Part shown: one piece after another, positions 31,646 to 49,568 of the stretch | How the letters are laid out: the number at the start of each line of letters is the position of its first letter | Position numbering within the stretch: position 1 is the first letter of the stretch | Made by a program: the position numbers and the translations under genes | Assembly: GCF_053078305.1 (NCBI RefSeq) | Contig: NZ_CP166879.1 | DNA length: 64,000 nucleotides | Direction: 5' to 3' (one strand) | The notes under the pieces: generated by a model | The model's input: the letters and a program-made list of their open reading frames with translations, nothing else | What the model was told of the DNA's origin: nothing | Databases searched by the model: none

Positions 31646-32528
31646 GAGTTCCCCGCGCTAGCGGGGATAAACCGTAATGAGTCAGGGGAATACCGAATAT
31701 TTTATAGAGTTCCCCGCGCTAGCGGGGATAAACCGAAATTTATCGAGATCGGCAGGGGTTACTGACAGAGTTCCCCGCGCTAGCGGGGATAAACCGGCCG
31801 TTAATCCGGACTGCCAGCGAATAACGCTGAGTTCCCCGCGCTAGCGGGGATAAACCGCAACATATTTAAACGATTTAAGCCAGGCATATGAGTTCCCCGC
31901 GCTAGCGGGGATAAACCGGGATTCATCACGCGGTTATCCGGGGGCCGTTAGAGTTCCCCGCGCTAGCGGGGATAAACCGGTGGTTGCGGGGTTATCGGTG
32001 GTAGTCACAATGAGTTCCCCGCGCTAGCGGGGATAAACCGCTCCAGCTCGATATCACACGACGCTATATCAGGAGTTCCCCGCGCTAGCGGGGATAAACC
32101 GGAAACAGCGCCCGCCGGTGCTGCGTTACCGTGGAGTTCCCCGCGCTAGCGGGGATAAACCGCCAACAAACTCATTTGCACTGGATTCGTGGATGAGTTC
32201 CCCGCGCTAGCGGGGATAAACCGACCGGCGCAATTGTTTTTCAGCAGCACCCGGCGAGTTCCCCGCGCTAGCGGGGATAAACCGTATTTTCTTTGTTGCG
32301 GTAGGCAATATCGCCAGAGTTCCCCGCGCTAGCGGGGATAAACCGGTATTTTGTCACGACCAGCACGAGGCCGAATAGAGTTCCCCGCGCCAGCGGGGAT
32401 AAACCGCCCCAACTCATGCCCACATGAAAAACGTTGACGAGTTCCCCGCGCCAGCGGGGATAAACCGCCGCAAAAGGTATTATTTTTATCCGTCAGTACG
32501 AGTTCCCCGCGCCAGCGGGGATAAACCA
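31646..32528 (+). CRISPR. CRISPR array, 15 repeats of 29 bp, 14 spacers of 32 bp (type I-E repeat)
   Basis: Exact 61-bp periodicity; 12 repeats GAGTTCCCCGCGCTAGCGGGGATAAACCG then 3 leader-distal repeats with CCAGCG loop; terminal repeat ends ...AACCA. Confidence 0.97.
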
Positions 32529-32996
32529 CCATATAACCCGTTATCTCTTTCTCAAGTTTTTATATTAGCTGTACTTGTAATAAGCAACATATCCACGTAA
32601 CACCTCATGTTCAAAATAGTTCCCCATGCCAGATAAGTTCACAATTATCGATACAAAAAATCAAATTTAATCAAAGTGTTATTTGTATAATCCTTAAACC
32701 GTTAAGAAATTTTAATATATTATTTTTTTAATATTAATTAATGCCTGTTAATTTTTTCTTTAGAATAACAGTGTATTTTTTAAGCTTGTTATTCATTGAT
32801 TAAGTAATAAATCTGGAAATTTGTCTTTGTTTTGAGGCTAATGAGTGGTTTTACATAACCGCCTCTATACGCTGTTGATGAATAGTTCTTATGAATAAAG
32901 ATATCCTGTTCATACTTTAAGTGAAAATTGATAAAGTGCGATTCGTATTGTCTTTTATTCTAAAGACATCGAGTGTAGTTAATATTCCTTGTAAAA

Positions 32997-33119
32997 ACAG
33001 GGATAAACCGAACTAGTTAAAGTTTTTATTATGTTCCCTGCATCAGCGGGGATAAACCGGACTTGTTATCATTTTTTAAGTTGTCGAACTTATGTTCCCC
33101 GCGCCAGCGGGGATAACCA
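32997..33119 (+). CRISPR. Vestigial CRISPR remnant (degenerate repeats)
   Basis: Partial repeat GGATAAACCG at 33001, ATGTTCCCTGCATCAGCGGGGATAAACCG at 33031-33059, ATGTTCCCCGCGCCAGCGGGGATAACC at 33092-33118; another fragment near 32617-32637. Confidence 0.7.
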
Positions 33120-33165
33120 TTCAGGTATGTTCAGGCCGGGCAGTTTCCCGCCCGGTTTTCCTCAC

Positions 33166-34644
33166 TTACGCATTCGACCAGCTCTGGATCGAATCCGCAT
33201 TCCCCAATTCCCCATGCATCACTTCATACGATTTTTTCAGAATCACATCAGTGTGTTTGGTTAAATCTTTGAAAATGCCTTTATTCATCGCGTCGTAGCG
33301 TTTGGCATTGCTCTCAACAGGCATAAAGATATCTTTCACGCGAACCATTTTATCGACAGCCGTTGCGTAATCCGGGTATAGCCCCAGACCTACCGCTGTA
33401 TTAATCGCTGCCCCCAGGCTTGCACAACCGTTAATGGCATTACGTCGTGCCGGAAGGTTGAACACGTCGGCAAAAATCTGCATAAACAGATCGCTGTTCG
33501 AACCGCCGCCAGTAATGATTACATGCTTCGCAAAGTGATTCATTTCATTACACATATTGTCGTAATTGTTCTTCAGCGTCAGCGCCACGCTTTCCAGTAT
33601 CGAACGATATATCCATGCGTAATCCATGCTGGAATCAAAGCCGATCATAATCCCACGTTTGTAGGGTTCCCACGGGTTGGTCAGCCAGTCCAGCACCGTC
33701 ATCAGACCATTACAGCCAGGCGGCACACAAGAAGCTTTTTTGTTGAGCAAATCTTCCGGTGAAAGATCCTGTGCTTTGGCATCCTGAATTAACGACTCGC
33801 CTAACATGTCGCGTAGCCAGCTCACCGTCCACATGCCTTTACGGATACCGTACCCTTCATACAGCAATGTTTCCGGAATAGAAGACATAATCGGCCAGTA
33901 CGCCACCGGATCTTTCGGCAGTGCTTTACCGTTCATCATCAGCGCGATGTAGGTGCCAAGAGAAATCACCGCCGTTTCATCATCCAGTAATCCGGCTCCC
34001 AGAGCTTCTACCGGTTTATCACTGGTGGTACAAACAACCGGCAGCCCTGACGGGAAATGTGTCGCCAGCGCGGCTTGAGGTGTGATCTGTCCAAGAACAG
34101 TGCCTGGCATTTGCACATCAAACAGCATATGACGGGGGATATTAAACTTCTCCATTACCGCAGCATCTTCGCTCCATGCCCAGCTCTTATAATCCACCGG
34201 CCACTGACCAAAATAGTTGGCGATATTGTCTTTAAACTCGCCGGTTAAGCGATGCGTCAGATAACCCGAAAAAGAGGTGACATATGCCACGTCAGGATTA
34301 GTGTGTTCGTAGGGACGCGTTACGCGTGCATCCTGCCAGCTAATCAACGGCGCAGCAGGCGTGCCATCGGCTTTCAATAACGCACGGCAGCAACGGATGG
34401 ATCCCAGACCAATACCGACAATATCTTCTTTATTCCCGGCAAACTGACTCATCAAATCGTGACCGGCAAAACATAATGATGCCCATAAATCGTCGTCAGG
34501 ATGTTCTGCAGTATCGGCATCTGGCGTGTGCATCGGCTGCAATAAACCTTTGCCTTCGCAAACCACGTTACCTTCCAGATCGTATATCACCACTTTTGTG
34601 CTCTGACTTCCGCCATCAATCCCTATGATGTATTTTTTCGACAT
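33166..34644 (-). CDS. ygcE: FGGY-family carbohydrate kinase
   Basis: 492 aa, FGGY sugar kinase N- and C-domains. Confidence 0.8.
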   Translation of the reverse strand: MSKKYIIGIDGGSQSTKVVIYDLEGNVVCEGKGLLQPMHTPDADTAEHPDDDLWASLCFAGHDLMSQFAGNKEDIVGIGLGSIRCCRALLKADGTPAAPLISWQDARVTRPYEHTNPDVAYVTSFSGYLTHRLTGEFKDNIANYFGQWPVDYKSWAWSEDAAVMEKFNIPRHMLFDVQMPGTVLGQITPQAALATHFPSGLPVVCTTSDKPVEALGAGLLDDETAVISLGTYIALMMNGKALPKDPVAYWPIMSSIPETLLYEGYGIRKGMWTVSWLRDMLGESLIQDAKAQDLSPEDLLNKKASCVPPGCNGLMTVLDWLTNPWEPYKRGIMIGFDSSMDYAWIYRSILESVALTLKNNYDNMCNEMNHFAKHVIITGGGSNSDLFMQIFADVFNLPARRNAINGCASLGAAINTAVGLGLYPDYATAVDKMVRVKDIFMPVESNAKRYDAMNKGIFKDLTKHTDVILKKSYEVMHGELGNADSIQSWSNA

Positions 34645-34670
34645 GATTTTTCTCCTGTAATTTTCCTGGC

Positions 34671-35948
34671 TTACTTGCTGCTAGCCATTGCGGGGGCGCT
34701 ATCAGCAGTACGAATTTTTTGGAACAGCAAAAAGGTAAAGACGATCACCATGCCGAGTGCCGCCATGCCCATCAGCCACATGTTGCGGTAGGCTTCTGCT
34801 GCGGGCAGGGTGTCCTGCCAGTGGCCGATAATCGGGTAAACGAAGACATCCGGCAGGAATCCAATCACCGAACAAATACCTACCGTGGTGCCCATAATGT
34901 AAGACGGTGTTCTCGCTTCGCCAGGGCAGGCCCAGTACAGCCCGCGTGAGGCGTAACAGGTGAATCCCAGCAGTAAAATCAGGCCAATCCCCATCGCGAC
35001 CGATTGCGGGTTAGAGTTGGTAACAAGCAGGGCAGTCAGTGCCAGCAGGCCGATGATGGAAAGGATTTGAATCACGCGGGTAGGGGATTTCACTTTACTG
35101 TAGGTGGTGATAATGCCGCCAAGTGGGCCGCACAGCGCGCGGAATATTTTGTTGATCACAATCCCCATGTAGCTCGCCGCCACCAGCGACATGCCATACA
35201 TTTCGGTCAGATAGTTGGTGGAGTAACTCAGAATGGCGTAGATGGTGAAGACACCAAAAATCACCATGCTGCAATACCAGGTGGTGCTGATGCGCAAAAC
35301 GGCCAGGATGTCGCTAAGCTGGAATGATTGTTTATCTTCGTTATTGGCACTGCGCAGGTTGTTGTTATCGCTAACAAAAAACCAGCACAGAATCCCCAAC
35401 AAGATGTAAACCACACTATAGATGATAATGACCGTTTTCAGGCTGGCGCTGTCATCCGGTGCAAAGCGAGAAAAGACCCACATGGTAAACACCGCCAGCG
35501 ACATTACACCGACGCCGCGCAGCCCTTCCATCCAGCCCATAATTTTCCCTTGCTCGCTATGATCGCCAAGCAACGATGCGGCTTTAATCGACACCGACCA
35601 CAGCATTAAAATCGTTGTTATCGCAAAGGCGACCTGAATACAGAGCATTACCCACAGCGGTGGATATGTTGCCATTAACAGACCCAGTAATCCGGTAATG
35701 ATCATCGCGGAAGTAATCATTTTGCGGTGTGAAAATTTATCGGCAATAACGCCGCTGGGGGCATAAAGAATAATAGCTGCAATACCAAAGGTACTCATTA
35801 TTAAACCTATCTCGGTATTGCTGAATCCCATAAATTTCGCCATGGGAATTTGATAAATATAACGTAAATAAGCCAGGTCAAAACTAACGCCGCCGCTAAA
35901 ACTAATTATCGCGAGGGTTATCCAACGGCGATATGAGTTGTGTTGCAT
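34671..35948 (-). CDS. yqcE: MFS transporter
   Basis: 425 aa, about 12 TM helices. Confidence 0.75.
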   Translation of the reverse strand: MQHNSYRRWITLAIISFSGGVSFDLAYLRYIYQIPMAKFMGFSNTEIGLIMSTFGIAAIILYAPSGVIADKFSHRKMITSAMIITGLLGLLMATYPPLWVMLCIQVAFAITTILMLWSVSIKAASLLGDHSEQGKIMGWMEGLRGVGVMSLAVFTMWVFSRFAPDDSASLKTVIIIYSVVYILLGILCWFFVSDNNNLRSANNEDKQSFQLSDILAVLRISTTWYCSMVIFGVFTIYAILSYSTNYLTEMYGMSLVAASYMGIVINKIFRALCGPLGGIITTYSKVKSPTRVIQILSIIGLLALTALLVTNSNPQSVAMGIGLILLLGFTCYASRGLYWACPGEARTPSYIMGTTVGICSVIGFLPDVFVYPIIGHWQDTLPAAEAYRNMWLMGMAALGMVIVFTFLLFQKIRTADSAPAMASSK

Positions 35949-36266
35949 ATCGTATTCCCATTTGTAATAGACAAAAAAAAGAGAAAAGTAAGCCGCCCTT
36001 TCAGGTGGATTACTTTTCTCAGGTCTCTAGTAATTGCAATAAGAAATAACATGGAAAGCAGAGGTGTTGTGTGAGAGTAATCACGCTTCTGCTTTTTAAA
36101 ACTATTTGATAATGCGAATATCACACTGTGATTACGATCACATTAGCAGTTATGCCCTTATGCTAAAAATTATCTCCAGTTACCAGAGATAATGAGAAAG
36201 GTAACTTCCCTCTCGCGGGGGAAGTTACCTTTCTTTTTTTTTGCCTTACGGAAATTGGAGCTAACT

Positions 36267-37052
36267 ATGTCAATCGAATCTCTCAATGCGTTCTCAATGG
36301 ATTTTTTCTCCCTGAAAGGTAAAACCGCAATTGTTACCGGCGGGAATAGCGGTTTAGGCCAGGCATTTGCCATGGCGTTGGCCAAAGCAGGCGCAAATGT
36401 CTTTATTCCTAGCTTCGTCAAAGATAACGGCGAAACAAAGGAAATGATTGAAAAACAGGGTGTTGAAGTTGATTTTATGCAGGTGGATATCACCGCAGAA
36501 GGCGCGCCGCAGAAGATTATCGCTGCTTGCTGTGAGCGTTTCGGAACAGTTGATATTCTGGTTAACAATGCCGGTATTTGTAAGCTGAATAAGGTGCTGG
36601 ACTTTGGTCGAGCCGACTGGGACCCGATGATTGATGTGAACCTGACCGCCGCATTCGAGTTAAGCTACGAAGCGGCAAAAATTATGATCCCGCAGAAAAG
36701 CGGTAAAATTATTAATATCTGTTCATTGTTCTCTTACTTAGGTGGACAATGGTCACCTGCATATTCTGCCACTAAACATGCTCTTGCCGGATTCACCAAA
36801 GCTTATTGTGATGAACTAGGTCAATATAATATTCAGGTAAATGGTATCGCCCCTGGCTATTATGCAACAGATATTACGCTGGCGACACGCAGTAATCCAG
36901 AAACCAATCAGCGCGTTCTTGATCATATTCCGGCAAAACGTTGGGGCGATACTCAGGATTTAATGGGCGCAGCCGTATTCCTCGCAAGTCCGGCATCGAA
37001 TTATGTCAACGGGCATTTATTAGTGGTTGATGGCGGTTATTTAGTGCGCTAA
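36267..37052 (+). CDS. ygcW: Short-chain dehydrogenase/reductase (KduD/FabG-like)
   Basis: ATG at 36267 gives about 261 aa with TGGNSGLG Rossmann motif; ORF track start 36192 is probably an upstream extension. Confidence 0.8.
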   Translation: MSIESLNAFSMDFFSLKGKTAIVTGGNSGLGQAFAMALAKAGANVFIPSFVKDNGETKEMIEKQGVEVDFMQVDITAEGAPQKIIAACCERFGTVDILVNNAGICKLNKVLDFGRADWDPMIDVNLTAAFELSYEAAKIMIPQKSGKIINICSLFSYLGGQWSPAYSATKHALAGFTKAYCDELGQYNIQVNGIAPGYYATDITLATRSNPETNQRVLDHIPAKRWGDTQDLMGAAVFLASPASNYVNGHLLVVDGGYLVR

Positions 37053-37121
37053 CCCATAACGGTGGTTTCTGTTTTCTCTTATTAATGATTATTCCATTTT
37101 TATTATCAGGAAGGAATTACT

Positions 37122-38576
37122 ATGTCTTTATCTCGCGCAGCGATTGTCGACCAGCTAAAGGAAATTGTTGGTGCAGATCGCGTAATTACCGATGAAACAG
37201 TATTAAAGAAGAACAGTATTGACCGTTTTCGTAAATTTCCGGATATTCATGGTATTTATACTTTGCCGATTCCGGCTGCGGTCGTAAAACTCGGTTCCAC
37301 AGAACAAGTCTCCCGTGTGCTGAATTTTATGAATGCGCACAAAATTAACGGTGTGCCGCGTACCGGTGCTTCCGCCACCGAAGGTGGGCTGGAAACTGTT
37401 GTAGAAAACTCGGTGGTGCTCGACGGTTCCGCCATGAATCAAATCATTAATATTGATATTGAGAATATGCAGGCGACGGCGCAATGTGGCGTTCCGCTGG
37501 AGGTGCTGGAAAACGCGTTGCGTGAAAAAGGTTACACCACGGGGCATTCTCCGCAGTCAAAGCCGCTGGCGCAGATGGGCGGCCTGGTAGCAACCCGCAG
37601 TATCGGGCAGTTCTCCACACTCTACGGCGCAATCGAAGATATGGTCGTTGGTCTGGAAGCCGTATTGGCTGATGGCACCGTCACACGTATTAAAAACGTG
37701 CCACGCCGCGCGGCTGGCCCGGACATTCGTCACATCATCATCGGCAACGAAGGTGCATTGTGCTATATCACTGAAGTAACAGTGAAAATCTTTAAATTCA
37801 CCCCGGAAAACAATCTCTTCTACGGCTATATCCTGGAAGACATGAAAACCGGCTTCAACATCCTGCGTGAAATCATGGTGGAAGGGTATCGTCCGTCGAT
37901 CGCTCGTTTGTATGACGCTGAAGATGGCACCCAACACTTCACGCATTTTGCCGACGGAAAATGCGTGCTGATCTTTATGGCTGAAGGTAACCCTCGCATT
38001 GCGAAGGCGACGGGCGAAGGGATTGCGGAAATCGTTGCCCGCTACCCGCAATGCCAACGCGTGGACAGCAAGCTGATCGAAACCTGGTTTAACAACCTGA
38101 ACTGGGGACCGGATAAAGTGGCTGCCGAACGTGTGCAGATCCTCAAAACCGGCAACATGGGCTTTACTACCGAAGTGTCCGGCTGCTGGAGCTGCATCCA
38201 CAAAATCTACGAAAGCGTTATTAACCGTATTCGTACCGAGTTCCCGCACGCCGACGACATCACTATGCTGGGCGGTCACTCCTCTCATAGCTATCAGAAC
38301 GGCACCAACATGTACTTCGTCTACGACTACAACGTTGTCAACTGTAAGCCGGAAGAGGAAATCGACAAGTACCACAATCCGCTCAACAAAATCATTTGCG
38401 AAGAAACCATTCGCCTCGGTGGTTCGATGGTGCACCACCACGGTATCGGTAAACATCGCGTTCACTGGAGCAAGCTGGAACACGGCAGCGCGTGGGCGTT
38501 GCTGGAAGGGCTGAAAAAGCAGTTCGATCCTAACGGCATTATGAATACGGGTACTATCTATCCGATTGAAAAATAA
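37122..38576 (+). CDS. ygcU: FAD-linked oxidase (alkyl-DHAP synthase / D-lactate dehydrogenase-like)
   Basis: 484 aa, FAD_binding_4-like N-terminal domain. Confidence 0.8.
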   Translation: MSLSRAAIVDQLKEIVGADRVITDETVLKKNSIDRFRKFPDIHGIYTLPIPAAVVKLGSTEQVSRVLNFMNAHKINGVPRTGASATEGGLETVVENSVVLDGSAMNQIINIDIENMQATAQCGVPLEVLENALREKGYTTGHSPQSKPLAQMGGLVATRSIGQFSTLYGAIEDMVVGLEAVLADGTVTRIKNVPRRAAGPDIRHIIIGNEGALCYITEVTVKIFKFTPENNLFYGYILEDMKTGFNILREIMVEGYRPSIARLYDAEDGTQHFTHFADGKCVLIFMAEGNPRIAKATGEGIAEIVARYPQCQRVDSKLIETWFNNLNWGPDKVAAERVQILKTGNMGFTTEVSGCWSCIHKIYESVINRIRTEFPHADDITMLGGHSSHSYQNGTNMYFVYDYNVVNCKPEEEIDKYHNPLNKIICEETIRLGGSMVHHHGIGKHRVHWSKLEHGSAWALLEGLKKQFDPNGIMNTGTIYPIEK

Positions 38577-38669
38577 TGTGTCAGGCAGCGTTCCGCGATG
38601 ACGGGGCGTTGCCTTTTCGGCTTCTCAGGCGAGAAGCCGTTCTTATTACCGGACAATGAAGGGGTAAAG

Positions 38670-40007
38670 ATGAACACTTCACCGGTGCGAATGGATGATT
38701 TACCGCTTAACCGTTTTCACTGTCGAATTGCTGCGCTCACTTTCGGCGCACACCTGACCGACGGTTATGTTCTCGGCGCCATTGGTTACGCCATTATTCA
38801 ACTTACGCCCGCCATGCAACTGACGCCGTTTATGGCGGGAATGATCGGCTGCTCGGCGCTCCTTGGTTTGTTTCTTGGCAGCCTGGTTCTTGGGTGGATC
38901 TCCGACCATATTTGTCGGCAAAAAATCTTCACCTTCAGCTTTTTGCTGATTACGCTCGCTTCGTTCCTGCAATTTTTTGCCACCACGCCAGAGCATCTTA
39001 TTGGACTGCGCATTTTGATCGGCATTGGTCTGGGAGGCGATTACTCAGTCGGTCACACCTTGCTGGCTGAATTTTCCCCGCGCCGCCATCGCGGTATTTT
39101 ACTGGGCGCATTCAGCGTGGTGTGGACCGTAGGCTATGTGCTGGCAAGTATTGCCGGACATCACTTTATTTCCGAAAACCCGGAGGCCTGGCGCTGGCTA
39201 CTGGCATCGGCAGCTCTGCCCGCGTTGTTGATTACGTTATTACGCTGGGGAACGCCAGAATCGCCACGCTGGCTACTGCGCCAGGGGCGTTTTGCAGAAG
39301 CTCACGCTATCGTGCATCGCTATTTTGGTCCCCATGTTTTACTGGGCGATGAAGTGGTAACGGCGACCCATAAACACATCAAAACCTTGTTCTCTTCGCG
39401 TTACTGGCGGCGCACGGCGTTTAACAGCGTCTTCTTTGTCTGCCTCGTAATCCCATGGTTTGTGATTTATACCTGGCTGCCAACTATCGCCCAGACTATT
39501 GGTCTGGAAGATGCGCTGACTGCCAGCCTGATGCTTAATGCGTTGTTAATTGTGGGCGCGCTGCTGGGATTAGTTCTGACGCACCTGCTGGCACATCGCA
39601 AATTTTTGCTGGGAAGTTTTTTGCTGCTGGCGGCAACGCTGGTAGTAATGGCCTGTTTGCCTTCCGGCAGTTCATTAACGCTGCTGCTTTTTGTTCTCTT
39701 CAGCACCACCATTTCGGCAGTCAGTAATCTGGTGGGCATTTTGCCTGCGGAAAGTTTTCCTACTGACATTCGCTCGCTGGGCGTCGGTTTTGCCACCGCC
39801 ATGAGTCGGTTGGGGGCGGCGGTAAGTACTGGCCTGCTGCCGTGGGTGCTGGCGCAGTGGGGAATGCAAGTCACCTTATTGCTCCTGGCGGCAGTGTTGT
39901 TGGTTGGTTTTGTTGTGACCTGGCTATGGGCACCAGAAACCAAAGCACTCCCGCTGGTGGCGGCGGGAAATGTAGGAGGTGCGAATGAACATTCTGTTAG
40001 CGTTTAA
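38670..40007 (+). CDS. ygcS: MFS transporter (sugar/aromatic acid porter-like)
   Basis: ATG at 38670 with GAAGGGG RBS, about 445 aa, 12 TM. Confidence 0.78.
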   Translation: MNTSPVRMDDLPLNRFHCRIAALTFGAHLTDGYVLGAIGYAIIQLTPAMQLTPFMAGMIGCSALLGLFLGSLVLGWISDHICRQKIFTFSFLLITLASFLQFFATTPEHLIGLRILIGIGLGGDYSVGHTLLAEFSPRRHRGILLGAFSVVWTVGYVLASIAGHHFISENPEAWRWLLASAALPALLITLLRWGTPESPRWLLRQGRFAEAHAIVHRYFGPHVLLGDEVVTATHKHIKTLFSSRYWRRTAFNSVFFVCLVIPWFVIYTWLPTIAQTIGLEDALTASLMLNALLIVGALLGLVLTHLLAHRKFLLGSFLLLAATLVVMACLPSGSSLTLLLFVLFSTTISAVSNLVGILPAESFPTDIRSLGVGFATAMSRLGAAVSTGLLPWVLAQWGMQVTLLLLAAVLLVGFVVTWLWAPETKALPLVAAGNVGGANEHSVSV

Positions 40008-40762
40008 AGCCGAACCGGATGCCGGAATGCTGGCGGAAAAAGAGTGGCAGGCGGCGGCTCAGGGTAATAGCGGACCGGATGTTTCGCTACTGCGAAGTTT
40101 ACTCGGTGCTGATGAACAGGCTGCCGCCGCGCTGCTGTTGGCGCAGAGAAAAAACGGTACGCCGATGTCTTTAACCGCGTTGAGCATGGGGGATGAACTG
40201 GCGTTACACTGGCTGCGCTATCTCATGGCTCTTGGGTTTGAGGAAGCTGTATTGCTGGAGACGGCGGCAGATCTGCGCTTTGCGCCGGAATTTGTCGCTC
40301 GCCATATTGCCGAATGGCAGCGTCAGAATCCGCTGGATCTGATAATTACCGGCTGCCAAAGCAGCGAAGGGCAGAATGGGCAAACGCCATTTTTGCTGGG
40401 TGAAGCTGGGCTGGCCCTGCTTCACCCAGGTGGAGCGTTTCACTCTCGACGCGCTGTTTATCACCCTCGAACAGCGTACTGAACATGGGCTGCGCTGTTG
40501 TCGGATTCGCTTGCCTGCGGTGATTGCCGTGCGTCAGTGCGGTGAAGTGGCCTTGCCAGTACCGGGAATGCGCCAGCGAATGGCTGCGGGGAAAGCGGAA
40601 ATTATCCGTAAAACTGTTGCTGCCGAATTGCCAGCGATGCAGTGTCTGCAACTGGCAAGAGCAGAGCAACGACGCGGAGCGACGCTGATTGATGGGCAAA
40701 CGGTAGCAGAAAAAGCGCAAAAGCTATGGCAGGACTATTTACGCCAAAGGATGCAGCCATGA
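39985..40762 (+). pseudogene. ygcR: Electron-transfer flavoprotein beta-like (FixA-like), apparently frameshifted
   Basis: Two overlapping ORFs (to 40482, and 40376-40762) in different frames; locus is 778 bp, not a multiple of 3; frame changes near 40390-40400. Confidence 0.6.
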
Positions 40763-41619
40763 ATATCGCAATTGTGACAATAAATCAGGAGAATGCCGCA
40801 TTAGCGGGCTGGCTGGCGGCGCAGGATTTCAGCGGTTGTACCCTGGCGCACTGGCAAATAGAACCACAGCCCGTAGTGGTGGAACAGGTGCTGGATGCGC
40901 TGGTGGAACAGTGGCAGCGAACGCCTGCGGACGTTGTTCTCTTTCCGCCGGGAACGTTTGGCGATGAACTGTCGACCCGGCTGGCCTGGCGTTTACATGG
41001 TGCAAGCATCTGCCAGGTGACTTCGTTAGAGATTCCAACCGTAAGCGTGCGCAAATCCCACTGGGGAAATGCGCTAACGGCGACGCTGCAAACAGAAAAA
41101 CGCCCGCTATGTCTTTCCCTGGCGCGCCAGGCGGGAGCAGATAAAAATGCCACGTTGCCCTCTGGTATGCAGCAACTGAACATAGTCCCAGGTGCGCTTC
41201 CGGACTGGCTGGTTAGCATAGAGAACCTGAAAAATGTTACCCGCGACCCATTAGCTGAGGCCAGACGGGTGTTGGTGGTGGGGCAGGGCGGAGAGGCAGA
41301 TAACCAGGAAATCGCTATGCTGGCAGAAAAGCTGGGAGCCGAAGTGGGCTACAGTCGGGCGCGAGTGATGAACGGTGGCGTTGATGCTGAAAAAGTGATT
41401 GGTATTTCCGGACATCTGCTGGCACCTGAGGTGTGTATTGTTGTTGGTGCTTCTGGCGCAGCAGCGTTAATGGCGGGCGTACGCAATAGCAAGTTTGTGG
41501 TGGCGATTAATCATGACGCCAGCGCAGCGGTATTTTCACAGGCAGATGTTGGCGTGGTTGATGACTGGAAAGTGGTGCTGGAGGCACTGGTGACAAACAT
41601 TGACGCAGATTGCCAATAA
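40759..41619 (+). CDS. ygcQ: Electron-transfer flavoprotein alpha-like (FixB-like)
   Basis: ATG at 40759 gives 286 aa; ATGA overlap with end of ygcR reading frame. Confidence 0.8.
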   Translation: MNIAIVTINQENAALAGWLAAQDFSGCTLAHWQIEPQPVVVEQVLDALVEQWQRTPADVVLFPPGTFGDELSTRLAWRLHGASICQVTSLEIPTVSVRKSHWGNALTATLQTEKRPLCLSLARQAGADKNATLPSGMQQLNIVPGALPDWLVSIENLKNVTRDPLAEARRVLVVGQGGEADNQEIAMLAEKLGAEVGYSRARVMNGGVDAEKVIGISGHLLAPEVCIVVGASGAAALMAGVRNSKFVVAINHDASAAVFSQADVGVVDDWKVVLEALVTNIDADCQ

Positions 41620-41624
41620 CGTGT

Positions 41625-41730
41625 TGCCGGATGATCCTGCCTACGGTTCTGGACTGGGGACCTGTAGGCCTGATAAGACGCGTTAAGCGTCGCATCAGGC
41701 GCTGAATGTCGGATGTGGCGTGCGGCCTAC
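41625..41730. repeat. REP/BIME extragenic palindromes
   Basis: GCCTGATAAGACGCG...CGCATCAGGC-type REP units between convergent ygcQ and ygcP. Confidence 0.7.
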
Positions 41731-41766
41731 AAATCAAACCAAATTCAATTGGTTACGATTATCCCG

Positions 41767-42342
41767 TCAAAGCAATTTTTTCGCTAACGTCCAGACTCCG
41801 GTATTCGTGGTGGAAAGCGCCACGACACCCGCGTTAATCGCATTACGCGCATCTTCTTCATCGCATACCAGCCCGCCAGCAATCAGCGGTTGGCGGATTT
41901 TTTCCGTCACCCAGCCCAGCACTTTGGGCATGCAGCCTGGCAGGATCTCAATACAATCCGGATTCGATTGCGCAACTTGCTTATCAATGTTGTGAAACGA
42001 AATCGAATCAACAATAAACAGGCGATGAATACAGAAAAAACCTTCCGCTCTTGCCGCTTTCAACATTGAGGCTTTGGTACTGATAATGCCGTCCGCCTCG
42101 GTCACCAGTTTCAAAAACTGAATCACGACTTCTTTATTTGACGCGCCTTCCAGCAAATCAACATGAATAAAAGCATATTTCCCGGCGTTCTTAATCTTTT
42201 TAACGATATTACTGATGGTGCAGATATTGCCGTACAACACGGAAATAAATTGGCATTCAGAATCGATTGCCAGTTGCAGGCTGGCATTATCTTTAACGGC
42301 AGCAATCACCGGATTCTGGCGGAGCAGGTGTAAGAGGGGCAT
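41767..42342 (-). CDS. ygcP: GlpP-like glycerol-3-phosphate responsive antiterminator family protein
   Basis: 191 aa; family assignment from memory of YgcP. Confidence 0.65.
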   Translation of the reverse strand: MPLLHLLRQNPVIAAVKDNASLQLAIDSECQFISVLYGNICTISNIVKKIKNAGKYAFIHVDLLEGASNKEVVIQFLKLVTEADGIISTKASMLKAARAEGFFCIHRLFIVDSISFHNIDKQVAQSNPDCIEILPGCMPKVLGWVTEKIRQPLIAGGLVCDEEDARNAINAGVVALSTTNTGVWTLAKKLL

Positions 42343-42358
42343 AAATTATCCTTATTAT

Positions 42359-42619
42359 TTATCCAAAGCGGTAGGTGATGCCGAATCCGGAAGGTGGATA
42401 GCGCCACTGTTGTAGTGTTGATTCGTCGCACAGCAAACGGCAGGTGCCACACTCAAGGCAACCGCGATAATCAACACGCAAGTCGCCTTCCGGCGTGAGC
42501 GCAAAAAGACCTGCCGGGCAGGCGTTAATTAATCGTTCTGCCGTCTGGCGCTCAACGGAGTCAGCCGGAACAATATGCGGCGCATCAGCAGCGCGCCAGA
42601 GATTACGGGCTACAGACAT
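42359..42619 (-). CDS. ygcO: Ferredoxin-like protein (FixX-like)
   Basis: ATG at 42619 gives 86 aa with Cys cluster (CLECGTCRLLCD); overlaps ygcN stop by 10 nt. Confidence 0.75.
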   Translation of the reverse strand: MSVARNLWRAADAPHIVPADSVERQTAERLINACPAGLFALTPEGDLRVDYRGCLECGTCRLLCDESTLQQWRYPPSGFGITYRFG

Positions 42620-43881
42620 CGAACACTCCTGATAACATCGCCCGCCAGATTCCACAAGCCATGACGACGTAAATGACGCCAGAGTAACTGGCGCAGCGGT
42701 GGAACAGGTTTATCACCCTGATCCCATAAATCGCGGGAAATATCCTGCATTAACGCAGGCCACGTACGGTACCATCCCGGGCGTTGCAAAAGCGCCGGAA
42801 CATGCTGATAACGCTGTAGAACTTCCCACAGCAGGCTGCGCTCTACGTTGTGATGATAAAGCGGAAACAGATTTTGCGGCTCGCGGTGCTGGCAGGCGCT
42901 TATCAGTGTTTGTGCCGCCGCCTGCGCGCCAGTTAGCGCCGTATCCATGCCGCGCACAGAAATTCCGGTATTGACGCAACTGCGCAACGCATCGCCCACC
43001 AGCAGCCAGCCGTTACCGGCGTATTGTACCGGCATACTGTGCAAGCCACCTTCTGGCACCAGATGCGCACCATACTCCAGTGATTCCGTGTTTTTGATAA
43101 GCGGGCGCACTGCCGGATGCGTTTTAAAGCGAGCAAGCAGCTCGCTTGCCGGAACACGACTTTGCGTAAGGGAAGAGAGTGGGCAAACAATCCCTAACGA
43201 GAGCGTTTGTTGATTAGTATAAAGAAATGCGCCGCCGGGTAAGTCATCACAGATTCCGCCGCTGAACAGCAACGCTGCGCCTTCGTTATTCTCCAGATGA
43301 AAACGTTCTTCAATAGCGGATGTTTCCAGCGACAGCACTTCTTTGATCCCCAACGCCATCGCTTCGCCAGCAGGACGAGTCACTAACCCGTGACGTTCAG
43401 CCAGGACGCTGTTGGCACCTTCTGCCAGCACCACATAACGGGCGCGGAGAATATCGTCACCACAAATGACACCACACACCCTGCCGTTTTCTTCATACAG
43501 TGCATCCACCGTCGCACCAGGGATGCATTCGACACCTTCTTTTTCGGCTTCGGCAACCAGCCACGGATCGAACCGTGCACGTAATACACTCCAGGATTCA
43601 CCGCCGGGCTGTAAGCTGGAAAACGTCGTTGCGCAATCCGGCGTTAACAGGGAAAGGCTTTCGTGAGTGATGCGTCGTTCAAGAGGCGCGGTCAGATGAA
43701 ATTGAGGGAGGAGTTCCGCGAGTGCATGGGTATATAACCGCCCGCCGGAAAGATTTTTGCTGCCGGGGATTTCAGCGCGTTCCAGTAACAAAACGGATAA
43801 ACCCGCTCGCGCGCAGCGTAACGCGCAAGCGGTGCCTGCAATACCGGCACCAATAATAATAATGTCGCAGTCGTCTTCCAT
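42610..43881 (-). CDS. ygcN: FAD-dependent oxidoreductase (FixC-like, ETF-quinone oxidoreductase type)
   Basis: ATG at 43881 gives 423 aa with GAGIAG dinucleotide-binding motif. Confidence 0.8.
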   Translation of the reverse strand: MEDDCDIIIIGAGIAGTACALRCARAGLSVLLLERAEIPGSKNLSGGRLYTHALAELLPQFHLTAPLERRITHESLSLLTPDCATTFSSLQPGGESWSVLRARFDPWLVAEAEKEGVECIPGATVDALYEENGRVCGVICGDDILRARYVVLAEGANSVLAERHGLVTRPAGEAMALGIKEVLSLETSAIEERFHLENNEGAALLFSGGICDDLPGGAFLYTNQQTLSLGIVCPLSSLTQSRVPASELLARFKTHPAVRPLIKNTESLEYGAHLVPEGGLHSMPVQYAGNGWLLVGDALRSCVNTGISVRGMDTALTGAQAAAQTLISACQHREPQNLFPLYHHNVERSLLWEVLQRYQHVPALLQRPGWYRTWPALMQDISRDLWDQGDKPVPPLRQLLWRHLRRHGLWNLAGDVIRSVRCL

Positions 43882-43958
43882 GTCATGCCCCAGATATCCT
43901 GAACACAACACCCTAACATAGCGTTACTTAAGGGAAATTGACCGCCGCCACACTCTTA

Positions 43959-44324
43959 TCATTCGCCGCGATAGATACAACCAGCGGTGCAGGTTTCTTT
44001 TACCATCACCGCACTTAACAGCGGCACAACGGGTTTAACCTGATCCCAAATCCATTTTGCTAAAACTTCGCTAGTTGGGTTTTCCAGACCTGGAATATCA
44101 TTGAGATAATGGTGATCGAGGCGCTCATAAGTTGGCTTAAACGCCGCTTTTAGTTCAGCGAAATCGATAATCCAGCCCGTATGCGGATCGACTTCCCCGG
44201 TAATTTCCAGTCGCACCATAAAGGAATGCCCGTGCAGGCGACCACATTTATGCCCTTTCGGGACGTGTGGTAAGCGGTGAGCGGCTTCGAAGGTGAAATC
44301 TTTAAATAACGTGGTGGACATCAT
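43959..44324 (-). CDS. queD: 6-carboxy-5,6,7,8-tetrahydropterin synthase
   Basis: ATG at 44324 gives 121 aa with PTPS Cys-x-His motifs; ORF track shows longer 149 aa frame. Confidence 0.85.
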
Positions 44325-44639
44325 AATTTCTCTACAGGACGATAAAACCGCCGTAGAGTACCGGAAAGGCTGTTTTTTCGCATTATCTAAAACGACTTTG
44401 TTGCGCAAAATCGCTGATTTATCTTAATGATTGGCTAAATTCATTTGTTTTTCATTAGGTTGGTTAATCTATTTTGTTGTTAAAGACTATTGCTAAAACA
44501 GGTTAGTCGATTTGGTTATTAGTTATCGCTATCCCGTCTTTAATCCACACCGTTCACCCCGTTAACCTTACCTTCTCTTCTGTTTTATGGGCGCTGACAG
44601 GGCGCAGAAACAGCTTTGCTTACTGGAACATAACGACGC

Positions 44640-46439
44640 ATGACGACACAGGTCCCACCTTCCGCGTTGCTTCCGTTGAACCCGGAGCAACTGGCACGCC
44701 TTCAGGCGGCCACGACCGATTTAACTCCCACCCAGCTTGCCTGGGTTTCTGGCTATTTCTGGGGCGTGCTCAATCAGCAGCCTGCTGCGCTTGCAGCAAC
44801 GCCAGCGCCAGCCGCAGAAATGCCGGGTATAACTATTATCTCCGCCTCGCAAACCGGCAATGCGCGCCGGGTTGCTGAAGCATTACGCGATGATTTATTG
44901 ACGGCAAAACTGAACGTTAAGCTGGTGAACGCGGGCGACTATAAATTCAAACAAATCGCCAGCGAAAAACTGCTTATCGTGGTGACGTCAACGCAAGGAG
45001 AAGGGGAACCGCCGGAAGAAGCCGTCGCGCTGCATAAGTTCCTGTTCTCCAAAAAAGCGCCGAAGCTGGAAAACACCGCATTTGCCGTGTTTAGCCTCGG
45101 CGATAGCTCTTATGAATTTTTCTGCCAGTCCGGGAAAGATTTTGACAGCAAGCTGGCGGAACTGGGCGGTGAACGCCTGCTCGACCGTGTCGATGCCGAC
45201 GTTGAATACCAGACCGCTGCCAGCGAGTGGCGCGCTCGCGTGGTTGATGCGCTTAAATCGCGTGCGCCTGTCGCGGCACCTTCGCAATCCGTCGCTACTG
45301 GCGCGGTAAATGAAATCCACACCAGCCCGTACAGCAAAGACTCGCCGCTGGTGGCGAGCCTCTCTGTTAACCAGAAAATTACCGGGCGTAACTCTGAAAA
45401 AGACGTTCGCCATATCGAAATTGACTTAGGTGACTCGGGCCTGCGTTACCAGCCGGGTGACGCGCTGGGTGTCTGGTATCAGAACGATCCGGCACTGGTG
45501 AAAGAACTTGTCGAACTGCTGTGGCTGAAAGGCGATGAACCTGTCACCGTCGAGGGCAAAACGTTGCCTCTGAACGAAGCGCTACAGTGGCACTTCGAAC
45601 TGACCGTCAACACCGCCAACATTGTTGAGAATTACGCCACGCTTACCCGCAGTGAAACACTGCTGCCGCTGGTGGGCGATAAAGCGAAGTTACAGCATTA
45701 CGCCGCGACGACGCCGATTGTTGACATGGTGCGTTTCTCCCCGGCACAGCTTGATGCCGAAGCGCTAATTAATCTGCTGCGCCCGCTGACGCCGCGTCTC
45801 TATTCCATTGCCTCCTCGCAGGCGGAAGTCGAGAACGAAGTACACGTCACCGTTGGTGTGGTGCGTTACGACGTGGAAGGCCGCGCCCGTGCCGGGGGGG
45901 CCTCCAGCTTCCTTGCGGACCGCGTGGAAGAAGAGGGCGAACTCCGCGTATTTATCGAACATAACGATAACTTCCGCCTACCAGCCAATCCAGAAACCCC
46001 GGTGATTATGATTGGCCCAGGCACCGGTATCGCGCCGTTCCGCGCCTTTATGCAGCAACGTGCTGCCGATGAAGCACCGGGTAAAAACTGGCTGTTCTTT
46101 GGCAACCCGCATTTTACGGAAGATTTCCTCTACCAGGTGGAGTGGCAGCGCTACGTCAAAGAGGGTGTGCTGACACGTATCGATCTCGCCTGGTCGCGCG
46201 ATCAAAAAGAAAAAGTTTACGTACAAGACAAACTACGCGAACAGGGCGCGGAGCTGTGGCGCTGGATCAATGACGGTGCCCACATTTATGTCTGCGGCGA
46301 CGCTAATCGCATGGCGAAAGACGTTGAGCAGGCACTTCTGGAAGTGATTGCCGAATTTGGTGGTATGGACACCGAAGCGGCGGATGAATTTTTAAGTGAG
46401 CTGCGCGTAGAGCGCCGTTATCAGCGAGATGTCTACTAA
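44640..46439 (+). CDS. cysJ: Sulfite reductase [NADPH] flavoprotein alpha subunit
   Basis: 599 aa, flavodoxin plus FAD/NADPH domains. Confidence 0.95.
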
Positions 46440-48151
46440 TGAGCGAAAAACATCCAGGGCCTTTAGTGGTCGAAGGAAAACTGACAGACGCCGAGCGCAT
46501 GAAGCTTGAAAGCAACTACCTGCGCGGCACCATTGCGGAAGATTTAAACGACGGTCTGACCGGCGGCTTTAAGGGCGACAACTTCCTGCTGATCCGCTTC
46601 CACGGCATGTATCAGCAGGATGACCGCGACATCCGCGCCGAACGTGCTGAACAGAAGCTGGAGCCGCGCCACGCGATGCTGTTGCGCTGCCGTCTGCCGG
46701 GTGGGGTGATTACCACTAAACAGTGGCAGGCGATAGACAAATTTGCCGGTGAAAACACCATCTATGGCAGCATTCGCCTGACCAACCGCCAGACGTTTCA
46801 GTTCCACGGCATTCTGAAAAAGAACGTCAAACCGGTGCACCAGATGCTGCACTCGGTTGGTCTTGATGCGCTGGCGACCGCTAACGACATGAACCGTAAC
46901 GTACTCTGCACCTCGAACCCTTACGAGTCGCAGCTACACGCGGAAGCGTATGAATGGGCGAAGAAAATCTCTGAACATCTGCTGCCGCGTACCCGCGCGT
47001 ATGCGGAGATCTGGCTCGATCAGGAAAAAGTCGCCACCACTGATGAAGAACCGATCCTCGGCCAGACCTACCTGCCGCGTAAATTCAAAACCACGGTAGT
47101 GATCCCGCCACAGAACGATATCGATCTGCACGCCAACGACATGAACTTCGTGGCGATCGCCGAAAACGGCAAGCTGGTGGGCTTTAACCTGTTGGTGGGC
47201 GGTGGGCTTTCCATCGAACACGGCAACAAGAAAACCTACGCCCGCACCGCGAGTGAGTTTGGCTATCTGCCGCTAGAGCATACGCTAGCGGTGGCGGAAG
47301 CCGTCGTGACAACTCAGCGTGACTGGGGTAACCGAACCGATCGTAAAAATGCCAAAACCAAATACACGCTGGAGCGCGTGGGGGTTGAGACGTTTAAAGC
47401 GGAAGTGGAGCGTCGCGCGGGGATCAAATTTGAACCGATCCGTCCGTATGAGTTCACCGGACGCGGAGATCGTATTGGCTGGGTTAAGGGCATTGATGAT
47501 AACTGGCACCTGACGCTGTTTATCGAAAATGGTCGCATCCTTGATTATCCGGGGCGTCCGCTGAAAACCGGCCTGCTGGAGATCGCGAAGATCCACAAAG
47601 GTGATTTCCGCATTACGGCGAACCAGAATCTGATCATCGCCGGTGTGCCGGAAAGCGAGAAAGCGAAGATCGAGAAGATCGCCAAAGAGAGCGGGTTAAT
47701 GAATGCCGTCACGCCGCAGCGTGAAAACTCAATGGCCTGCGTCTCGTTTCCGACTTGCCCGCTGGCGATGGCGGAAGCGGAGCGTTTCCTACCGTCTTTT
47801 ATCGACAACATCGATAATTTAATGGCGAAACATGGTGTTAGCGATGAGTATATCGTGATGCGTGTAACAGGCTGCCCGAACGGTTGTGGTCGCGCGATGC
47901 TGGCGGAAGTGGGCCTGGTGGGTAAAGCGCCGGGTCGCTACAACCTGCATCTTGGCGGCAACCGTATTGGGACACGTATCCCACGGATGTATAAAGAAAA
48001 CATCACCGAGCCGGAAATCCTGGCGTCGCTTGATGAACTGATAGGGCGCTGGGCGAAAGAGCGCGAAGCGGGTGAAGGCTTCGGCGACTTTACGGTGCGT
48101 GCGGGCATCATTCGCCCGGTGCTCGATCCGGCGCGCGATTTGTGGGATTAA
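46439..48151 (+). CDS. cysI: Sulfite reductase [NADPH] hemoprotein beta subunit
   Basis: 570 aa; start overlaps cysJ stop (TAATG). Confidence 0.95.
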
Positions 48152-48163
48152 CCATCAGCCCGG

Positions 48164-48206
48164 TCTTGTAGGCCTGATAAGACGCGTGAGCGTCGCATCA
48201 GGCAAG
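48164..48206. repeat. REP element between cysI and cysH
   Basis: CTTGTAGGCCTGATAAGACGCG...CGCATCAGGC palindrome. Confidence 0.7.
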
Positions 48207-48224
48207 GCAAACAGTGAGGAATCT

Positions 48225-48959
48225 ATGCCCAAACTCGATCTAAACGCCCTGAACGAACTGCCGAAGGTAGATCGCATTCTGGCGCTGGCAGAAACTAACG
48301 CCCAACTGGAAAAACTGGACGCTGAAGGCCGCGTAGCCTGGGCGCTGGATAATCTGCCCGGTGAATATGTGCTTTCTTCCAGCTTCGGCATTCAGGCGGC
48401 GGTGAGCCTGCATCTGGTGAATCAGATTCGCCCGGATATTCCAGTGATCCTCACCGATACCGGTTACTTGTTCCCGGAAACCTACCGCTTTATTGACGAG
48501 TTAACGGACAAACTCAAGCTCAACCTGAAAGTGTACCGTGCTACCGAAAGCGCAGCCTGGCAGGAAGCACGCTACGGAAAACTGTGGGAACAGGGCGTTG
48601 AAGGCATTGAAAAGTACAATGACATCAACAAAGTCGAACCGATGAACCGGGCGCTGAAAGAACTTAACGCGCAAACGTGGTTTGCTGGCCTGCGCCGCGA
48701 ACAATCCGGCAGCCGCGCCAATTTACCGGTGCTGGCAATTCAGCGTGGCGTATTTAAAGTGCTGCCGATTATCGACTGGGATAACCGAACTATTTATCAG
48801 TACCTGCAAAAACATGGCCTTAAATATCACCCATTATGGGATGAAGGATATTTATCGGTTGGTGATACCCATACAACCCGTAAATGGGAACCCGGCATGG
48901 CTGAAGAAGAAACGCGTTTCTTTGGCTTAAAAAGGGAATGTGGGTTACACGAAGGGTAA
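48225..48959 (+). CDS. cysH: Phosphoadenosine phosphosulfate reductase
   Basis: ATG at 48225 after GAGGA RBS gives 244 aa; upstream in-frame extension of the ORF-track call runs through the REP element and is not credible. Confidence 0.92.
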
Positions 48960-49223
48960 ATATTGCCGGATAAATTAAACGCCTCTGTCAGAAATGATGG
49001 GGGCGTTTTTATTTTGCGAGCAGCATTCCTGATTTTAAACGTGAACGCCGCTGGAAGAATTAACAGGTATAGAATGGTGTTGGGTGCTTGAGGCTGTCTG
49101 GCGTTAAGCATTCGCGAGGTTCCAGATGGACAAAAGCCCCAGGCGATATTTCTATCAACCTGAGGCCAGCGTTCGAACCTAAGCAATTCGAATGTTAGTC
49201 TCTTCTTTGCAGGGAGGCAAGAC

Positions 49224-49376
49224 ATGCTGACAAAATATGCCCTTGTGGCAATCATCGTACTGTGTTGTACAGTACTGGGATTCACGCTGATGGTAGGCGA
49301 CTCGTTGTGTGAGTTGAGTATCAGAGAACGTGGTATGGAGTTTAAGGCTGTTCTCGCTTACGAATCGAAGAAGTAG
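49224..49376 (+). CDS. hokX: Hok/Gef-family type I toxin (probable hokX)
   Basis: 50-codon ORF, not in the ORF track because under 60 aa; hydrophobic N-terminal TM segment plus conserved Hok C-terminal pattern (LCEL..R...EF.A.LAYESK); followed by a hairpin. Confidence 0.65.
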
Positions 49377-49568
49377 CCACCACGCGGGGGTAAAACCCCG
49401 CGTATTGAATTGTGATGGTTTGGTCTCCTGCACCCTTTTTTAAATTTATATTTTTTATGTGAATATATTGTCTCTATTTATTATTATGAATTTCAAATGA
49501 AAATCATAAATTTATTCACAATATAAATGTTTTATTGGCTGATATATATCACAGATAATTTTTAAAAT

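Follow-up and report, generated by a model that had tools for sequence, protein, structure and literature searches.

The window analysed here, a 64-kb stretch of Escherichia coli DNA, contains a copy of ygcR, a gene of the electron transfer flavoprotein (ETF) beta/FixA family, together with the neighbouring ygcQ. The features at the locus are the following.

39985 to 40762, + strand: ygcR pseudogene, ETF beta/FixA family, 778 bp versus 780 bp in intact alleles
39985 to 40482, + strand: N-terminal frame of ygcR, with 138 native codons, Gly139 (ancestral Ala), Glu140, 25 out-of-frame codons (AGLALLHPGGAFHSRRAVYHPRTAY) and a TGA
40406 to 40762, + strand: C-terminal part of ygcR, with 118 native codons and a stop, lying in frame +1 with respect to the N-terminal part
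40759 to 41619, + strand: ygcQ, ETF alpha/FixB family, intact, 286 aa

The upstream open reading frame begins at the ATG at 39985 (an in-frame GTG lies at 39979), reads through QTPFLLGE and ends at a TGA at 40480-40482, giving a product of 165 aa. The downstream frame has no stop between 40373 and the TGA at 40760-40762, and reads LGWPCFTQVERF from 40406. An earlier note on this DNA, made from its letters alone, had described two halves of ygcR in different frames and a locus of 778 bp, two short of 780; the first is borne out by the raw sequence and the list of open reading frames, and the codon arithmetic of the second is exact, as 140 codons, one base, 118 codons and a stop add up to 778 bp. 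The ATGA by which the C-terminal half was said to be coupled to ygcQ is likewise present, formed by the overlap of the ygcR TGA and the ygcQ ATG at 40759-40762. That the gene is ygcR, of the ETF-beta/FixA family, is supported by its annotation in complete E. coli genomes and by alignment with intact alleles, the identity between the window ygcR and annotated ygcR being >98%. In complete genomes the gene sits between ygcS (MFS transporter) and ygcQ (ETF alpha/FixB), and the intact locus is annotated as 'electron transfer flavoprotein subunit beta/FixA family protein'. The E. coli ygcR/ygcQ genes form an ETF-like pair paralogous to fixAB and ydiQR, and the window has the same gene order, ygcW-ygcU-ygcS-ygcR-ygcQ, with ygcP-ygcO-ygcN on the opposite strand; it departs from this arrangement only in that the beta gene is frameshifted, whereas ygcQ, the alpha gene, is intact, as is the remainder of the cluster.

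Comparison with the ygcR of other E. coli genomes, a check proposed in the earlier note, was carried out on a collection of 5,426 complete genomes, about 5,094 of which matched the locus over at least 80% of its length. Among the matches listed, the intact state was in every case a single CDS annotated ygcR, one continuous open reading frame of 780 bp. The best identity of any complete genome to the window ygcR was at most 99.1%, and the lineage of the window is therefore rare in that collection. Over 20,861 bp the window is 100% identical to GCA_000736735.1 / JPQG01000003.1, from E. coli strain 48, in whose annotation no CDS is called between ygcS and ygcQ. JPQG00000000 belongs to E. coli strain 48, a Shiga-toxin-producing roe deer isolate carrying subAB2-3 (PMC5323612). 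The exact YgcQ of the window was found on six or seven contigs, and a 5.94-Mb contig also carries an identical YgcQ and YgcU. The other aligned contigs with an identical YgcQ have all of the private SNPs of the window, and are therefore close relatives; within ygcR they differ from it only at the lesion.

Several further observations were made in the neighbourhood. With a period of 61 bp and the repeat GAGTTCCCCGCGCTAGCGGGGATAAACCG, a type I-E CRISPR array occupies 31680-32500, between the queE/ygcF side and ygcE, and its spacers differ between the window and relatives that are near-identical to it over the next 19.5 kb. The ygcS product is 445 aa in the JPQG record (L011 7912-9249) versus 469 aa in related contigs and RefSeq genomes; the window open reading frame (38598-40007) fits 469 aa from the ATG at 38598, and the discrepancy looks like a matter of start-codon choice by an older annotation pipeline. 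Between cysH and cas3 there is a 50-aa open reading frame of the Hok/Gef family, at about 49224-49376 (L011 18466-18618). The cas3 gene (49610 onward; L011 18853 onward) encodes 885 aa in the JPQG record versus 899 aa in close relatives. In two relatives, L009 and L012, this stretch holds instead a gene for an M28/M42-type peptidase and a PAPS-reductase-like gene, which means that the cas region is variable in the strain 48 lineage.

Alignment with intact alleles places the lesion in ygcR within a single short tract.

40400 to 40404, + strand: converted tract GTGAA, which replaces ancestral CGGAAAT

The lesion consists of a C>G change at 40400, a G>T change at 40401 and the loss of AT after 40404, and is thus a three-part cluster within 7 nt, made up of two adjacent substitutions and a 2-nt deletion. 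The ancestral sequence at the site is CTGGCGGAAATGC; in the ancestral allele TTTTTGCTGG is followed by CG GAA AT GCTGGGC, and in the window TTTTTGCTGG is followed by GT GAA GCTGGGC. The earlier note had spoken of a 2-bp deletion, which holds for the net change of -2 bp but not for a plain deletion, since the alignment shows the replacement of CGGAAAT by GTGAA. The lesion lies inside GGCGGAAATGC and outside any homopolymer, and the T5 run 6 nt upstream (40390-40394) is unaltered. Compared over 6,860 bp with contig L006, which encodes an identical YgcQ, the window differs only here, by two mismatches and a 2-bp gap; compared over 19.5 kb (32100 to 51619) with contig L010, it shows four other SNPs and zero other indels. 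With so few other differences from these two contigs, the lesion is recent and behaves as one cluster.

The allele is private to this strain in the collections that we searched. With an 81-bp query across the site, the top identity in 4,922 complete genomes was 95.2%, which corresponds to the ancestral allele (an intermediate would be expected at about 97.6%), and neither the derived allele nor an intermediate was found among them. A synthetic query for the reciprocal allele, in which the right arm of the inverted repeat described below is rewritten to match the left, likewise found no match in the complete genomes. The exact products of the frameshift, searched for as two versions of the N-terminal open reading frame and as the C-terminal one, are absent among 15 billion proteins, so that no independent assembly carries it. 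The 165-aa query did retrieve shortened YgcR proteins, 125-179 aa in length, from a collection of 5.8 billion proteins, and they come from different frameshifts: all of them read the ancestral DNA at the site, as IFAGGNAGLALL in the shifted frame, and the reading LLGEAGLALL occurs in none of these truncated homologues. We considered a recurrence of the allele and found it unsupported, as the other truncated YgcR proteins arise from other frameshifts. They include several 165-aa singletons. A 179-aa product with 59 members has its frameshift in the T5 run at 40390-40394, just upstream of the lesion, and a second 179-aa product with 127 members has a later one; proteins P0034, P0038 and P0052 are examples of these other frameshift alleles. 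Protein P0048, a 165-aa frameshifted E. coli YgcR fragment, is filed under Actinoallomurus acanthiterrae and is probably E. coli contamination. The gene is thus often broken in public data, whether by real decay or by errors, while the allele of the window is private.

The altered tract lies within one arm of an inverted repeat.

40396 to 40411, + strand: left arm of the inverted repeat, CTGGGTGAAGCTGGGC, which carries the mutation and has become complementary to the right arm
40414 to 40429, + strand: right arm of the inverted repeat, GCCCTGCTTCACCCAG, unaltered, the putative template

A repeat search of the window reported 16-nt arms that are 94% complementary (15 of 16 positions pairing) around a 2-nt spacer, and the same search of the intact ygcR allele detected no inverted repeat. 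The intact alleles, L006 and others, nevertheless hold an imperfect repeat, CTGG-CG-GAA-AT-GC-T-GGGC / GCCC-T-GC-TTC-AC-CCAG, in which 13 of the 16 right-arm positions have a left-arm partner, three positions are mismatched and 2 nt are bulged. The ancestral left arm departs from the complement of the right arm by two mismatches (CG), the 2-nt bulge (AT) and a T.T mismatch further in. Exactly the two CG mismatches and the AT bulge are removed by the three changes observed, and the inner T.T stays in place. Every change is thus templated by the opposite arm, as C>G, G>T and the deletion of AT yield CTGGGTGAAGC, the reverse complement of GCTTCACCCAG. When folded as single-stranded DNA, the derived hairpin reaches -16.5 kcal/mol (z = -4.9, with none of 200 shuffles as good), compared with -6.6 kcal/mol for the ancestral one (z = +0.25, with 118 of 200 shuffles as good). 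By hairpin stability, GTGAA ranks first among all 1,024 5-mers that could replace the ancestral 7-mer, and among the 126 distinct combinations of two substitutions with a 2-nt deletion at the site no other does as well. When 5,000 random events with the geometry of this lesion were placed elsewhere in ygcR, none brought a folding-energy change of -9.9 kcal/mol or better. The converted tract is flanked by microhomologies, CTGG/CCAG on the outer side and GC/GC and GGGC/GCCC on the inner side. A Dcm site, CCAGG (40426-40430), forms the outer end of the unaltered right arm.

These features bear on whether the frameshift is real. The earlier note had offered a sequencing error as an alternative to a genuine mutation, and it might indeed be supposed that strain 48 has an intact 780-bp ygcR and that the draft consensus, or its assembly, is wrong at this site. 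The allele is present in a single assembly, its exact frameshift products are missing from the 15 billion proteins searched, and the draft, of 2014 vintage and with a contig of 1.42 Mb, was probably obtained from long reads, the same group having used PacBio for sister strains. Long-read consensus errors, however, are typically single-base indels in homopolymers, a hallmark that the ygcR lesion does not match: it combines two substitutions with a 2-nt deletion outside any such run, and the adjacent T5 run is unaffected. The 19.5 kb shared with the closest relative contain zero other indels, a random error is not expected to produce the most hairpin-stabilising 5-mer of 1,024, and template switching in vitro would be expected to alter single molecules rather than the consensus. 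An artefact therefore seems unlikely to us, although it keeps some weight. What stands of the sequencing-error alternative is that only one assembly has the allele; the templated, complex nature of the change and the indel-free 19.5 kb disfavour it, and suggest that the frameshift is probably real.

A real lesion could have arisen in steps, by an ordinary 2-bp deletion and two unrelated point substitutions that are adjacent by chance. Relaxed selection on ygcR would make such an accumulation plausible, given how often the gene is broken by other frameshifts in public data, but the three changes fall within 7 nt while the remaining 6.86 kb is identical to L006, intermediates are absent among the approximately 5,000 genomes, the AT is not in a repeat that would favour slippage, and all three changes fit the opposite arm. 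We regard a stepwise origin as very improbable. Gene conversion from an ectopic donor, for example from an ETF-beta paralogue like ydiQ or fixA, is a little more improbable still. The Ala>Gly change creates an LLGE motif, which is presumably present in ETF-beta paralogues too, and this could be read as a trace of such a donor; however, the 64-kb window was found to contain the derived 15-mer GCTGGGTGAAGCTGG only once, also when one mismatch was allowed, and to our knowledge the paralogues of ygcR are too diverged to offer flanking homology. Neither the loss of 2 nt nor the break in the frame would be expected from conversion, and the local arm 14 nt away accounts for every base and is the more economical source.

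We consider it quite likely that ygcR was inactivated by one quasipalindrome-associated template-switch mutation. In quasipalindrome (QP) mutation, of which the pattern at ygcR is the signature, the polymerase stalls at a quasipalindrome and the nascent strand takes the wrong template (PMC7202029). Among the work cited there are the model of Ripley (1982), the natural hotspot in thyA (Dutra and Lovett 2006) and the lacZ QP5/QP6 reporters. In the case of ygcR, the starting state would be the ancestral gene with its imperfect inverted repeat. During DNA synthesis, the nascent 3' end would leave its proper template and prime on the complementary arm through the outer CTGG/CCAG or the inner GC/GC microhomology, some 5-7 nt would be copied from the other arm before the return, and CGGAAAT would in this way be rewritten as GTGAA. 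One such rewriting step would clear the 2-nt bulge and two mismatches together, and the inner T.T mismatch would survive because it lies outside the copied tract. Against a template switch it counts that priming would have relied on microhomologies of just 4 bp, or of 2 bp beside a mismatch, that the allele is known only from the draft assembly of E. coli strain 48 (JPQG01000003.1), and that the site is no recurrent hotspot in the approximately 5,000 complete genomes.

We infer the template switch itself, its occurrence in vivo and its strand. Across the window the + strand shows a positive GC skew and is therefore taken as the leading-strand sequence, with forks moving from left to right. If the switch was an intramolecular fold-back, in which the arm synthesised second is rewritten, the event would have taken place on the nascent lagging strand, and if it was a cross-fork (intermolecular) switch, it would have taken place on the leading strand; the sequence may fit either and cannot distinguish between them. 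In quasipalindrome switching the leading strand is reported to mutate more readily as a rule, and DNA-protein crosslinks, including trapped Dcm, to stimulate the template switches (PMC6357072).

The case resembles described quasipalindrome mutations (the Ripley 1982 model, the thyA hotspot and the lacZ QP5/QP6 reporters of the Lovett laboratory) in that the ancestor already has an imperfect inverted repeat, a multi-nucleotide change including a frameshift affects one arm only, each change adds to the complementarity of that arm with its partner, and short microhomologies bound the copied tract. As in those mutations, the repeat becomes 'more perfect' and yet not fully perfect (PMC7202029). Unlike the thyA and lacZ reporters, the ygcR case is natural and unselected, comes from a wild Shiga-toxin-producing isolate and was recognised by genome comparison. 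It also differs from the thyA hotspot in its rarity, with none of the approximately 5,000 complete genomes showing the change in either direction, and it is read from sequence, not from genetic evidence such as dependence on ExoI/ExoVII, AZT or fluoroquinolones. A further likeness is to the short-range template-switch clusters of human and yeast (bioRxiv 10.1101/2021.11.26.470150, PMC8604942), where one inverted local copy also explains a cluster of substitutions and an indel and homogenises the arms. The human and yeast work deals with variants in human populations or with yeast protein innovation, whereas the ygcR case is bacterial and the gene is inactivated.

Since a strong hairpin now stands right at the frame junction, it could be proposed that it stimulates a programmed +1 or -2 ribosomal frameshift and that full-length YgcR is still made. 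The earlier note had mentioned a two-frame organisation shared with orthologues as a sign of such a programmed feature, and no orthologue examined shares it: the layout occurs in one strain only, all of those orthologues are single open reading frames, and those of Citrobacter and Klebsiella are 260 aa long. By eye, no +1 slippery or hungry-codon site was recognised in the 40373-40482 overlap, and hairpins stimulate -1 shifts, which would not restore the ygcR frame. With the allele private and the direction of the shift wrong for a hairpin-stimulated -1 event, we rejected programmed frameshifting, which we hold to be the least credible of the explanations considered.

The consequence for the protein can be judged from its domain content. 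The YgcR of an intact relative has a single Pfam ETF domain (PF01012; residues 47-214, 60 bits), and in the window the native frame is left past codon 140 of 259, about midway through this domain. The N-terminal fragment scores 24.9 bits against PF01012, under the curated cut-off of 26.7, and a Pfam search with the C-terminal fragment gave no PF01012 match. Because the break bisects the ETF domain and the fragments fail the threshold, the product is likely non-functional; the crippling of the ETF module that the earlier note had foreseen thus agrees with a break through the sole ETF domain, and YgcR is most likely inactive. The DNA of the window is clearly ygcR, and its product is not an intact member of the ETF beta/FixA family. 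The ygcQ product retains its matches to ETF_alpha (PF00766, 64 bits) and ETF, and an AGGA is retained upstream of the ygcQ ATG. Translation of ygcR now halts 277 nt upstream of the ygcQ start, and with ribosomes halting at that distance the translational coupling of ygcR to ygcQ through the ATGA would be lost. Strain 48 is probably without a working YgcR/YgcQ electron transfer flavoprotein.

One paper reports that, in a mazEF context, more cells survive DNA damage when ygcR is deleted (PMC2646832). As ygcR is thereby reported to promote mazEF-linked death after DNA damage, and as DNA damage and fluoroquinolones stimulate quasipalindrome switching, the loss of ygcR might be imagined as an adaptive, hairpin-templated knock-out of a mazEF-linked death gene, with the quasipalindrome serving as a contingency switch flipped by DNA damage or fluoroquinolone. 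We find this reading highly doubtful.

A single template switch at an imperfect hairpin can look like two SNPs and a deletion in a genome comparison, and for annotation the ygcR lesion should be scored as one event. It provides a clean natural instance of a class of mutation that is mostly known from engineered reporters. The mechanism is already known and is seen here in a natural isolate, which makes the case neat and useful for annotation and unsurprising to the specialist. The biological effect is probably small, as no function has been established for the ygc cluster and public data contain many other ygcR frameshifts, and the ygcR of strain 48 is a tidy but ordinary strain-private pseudogene.
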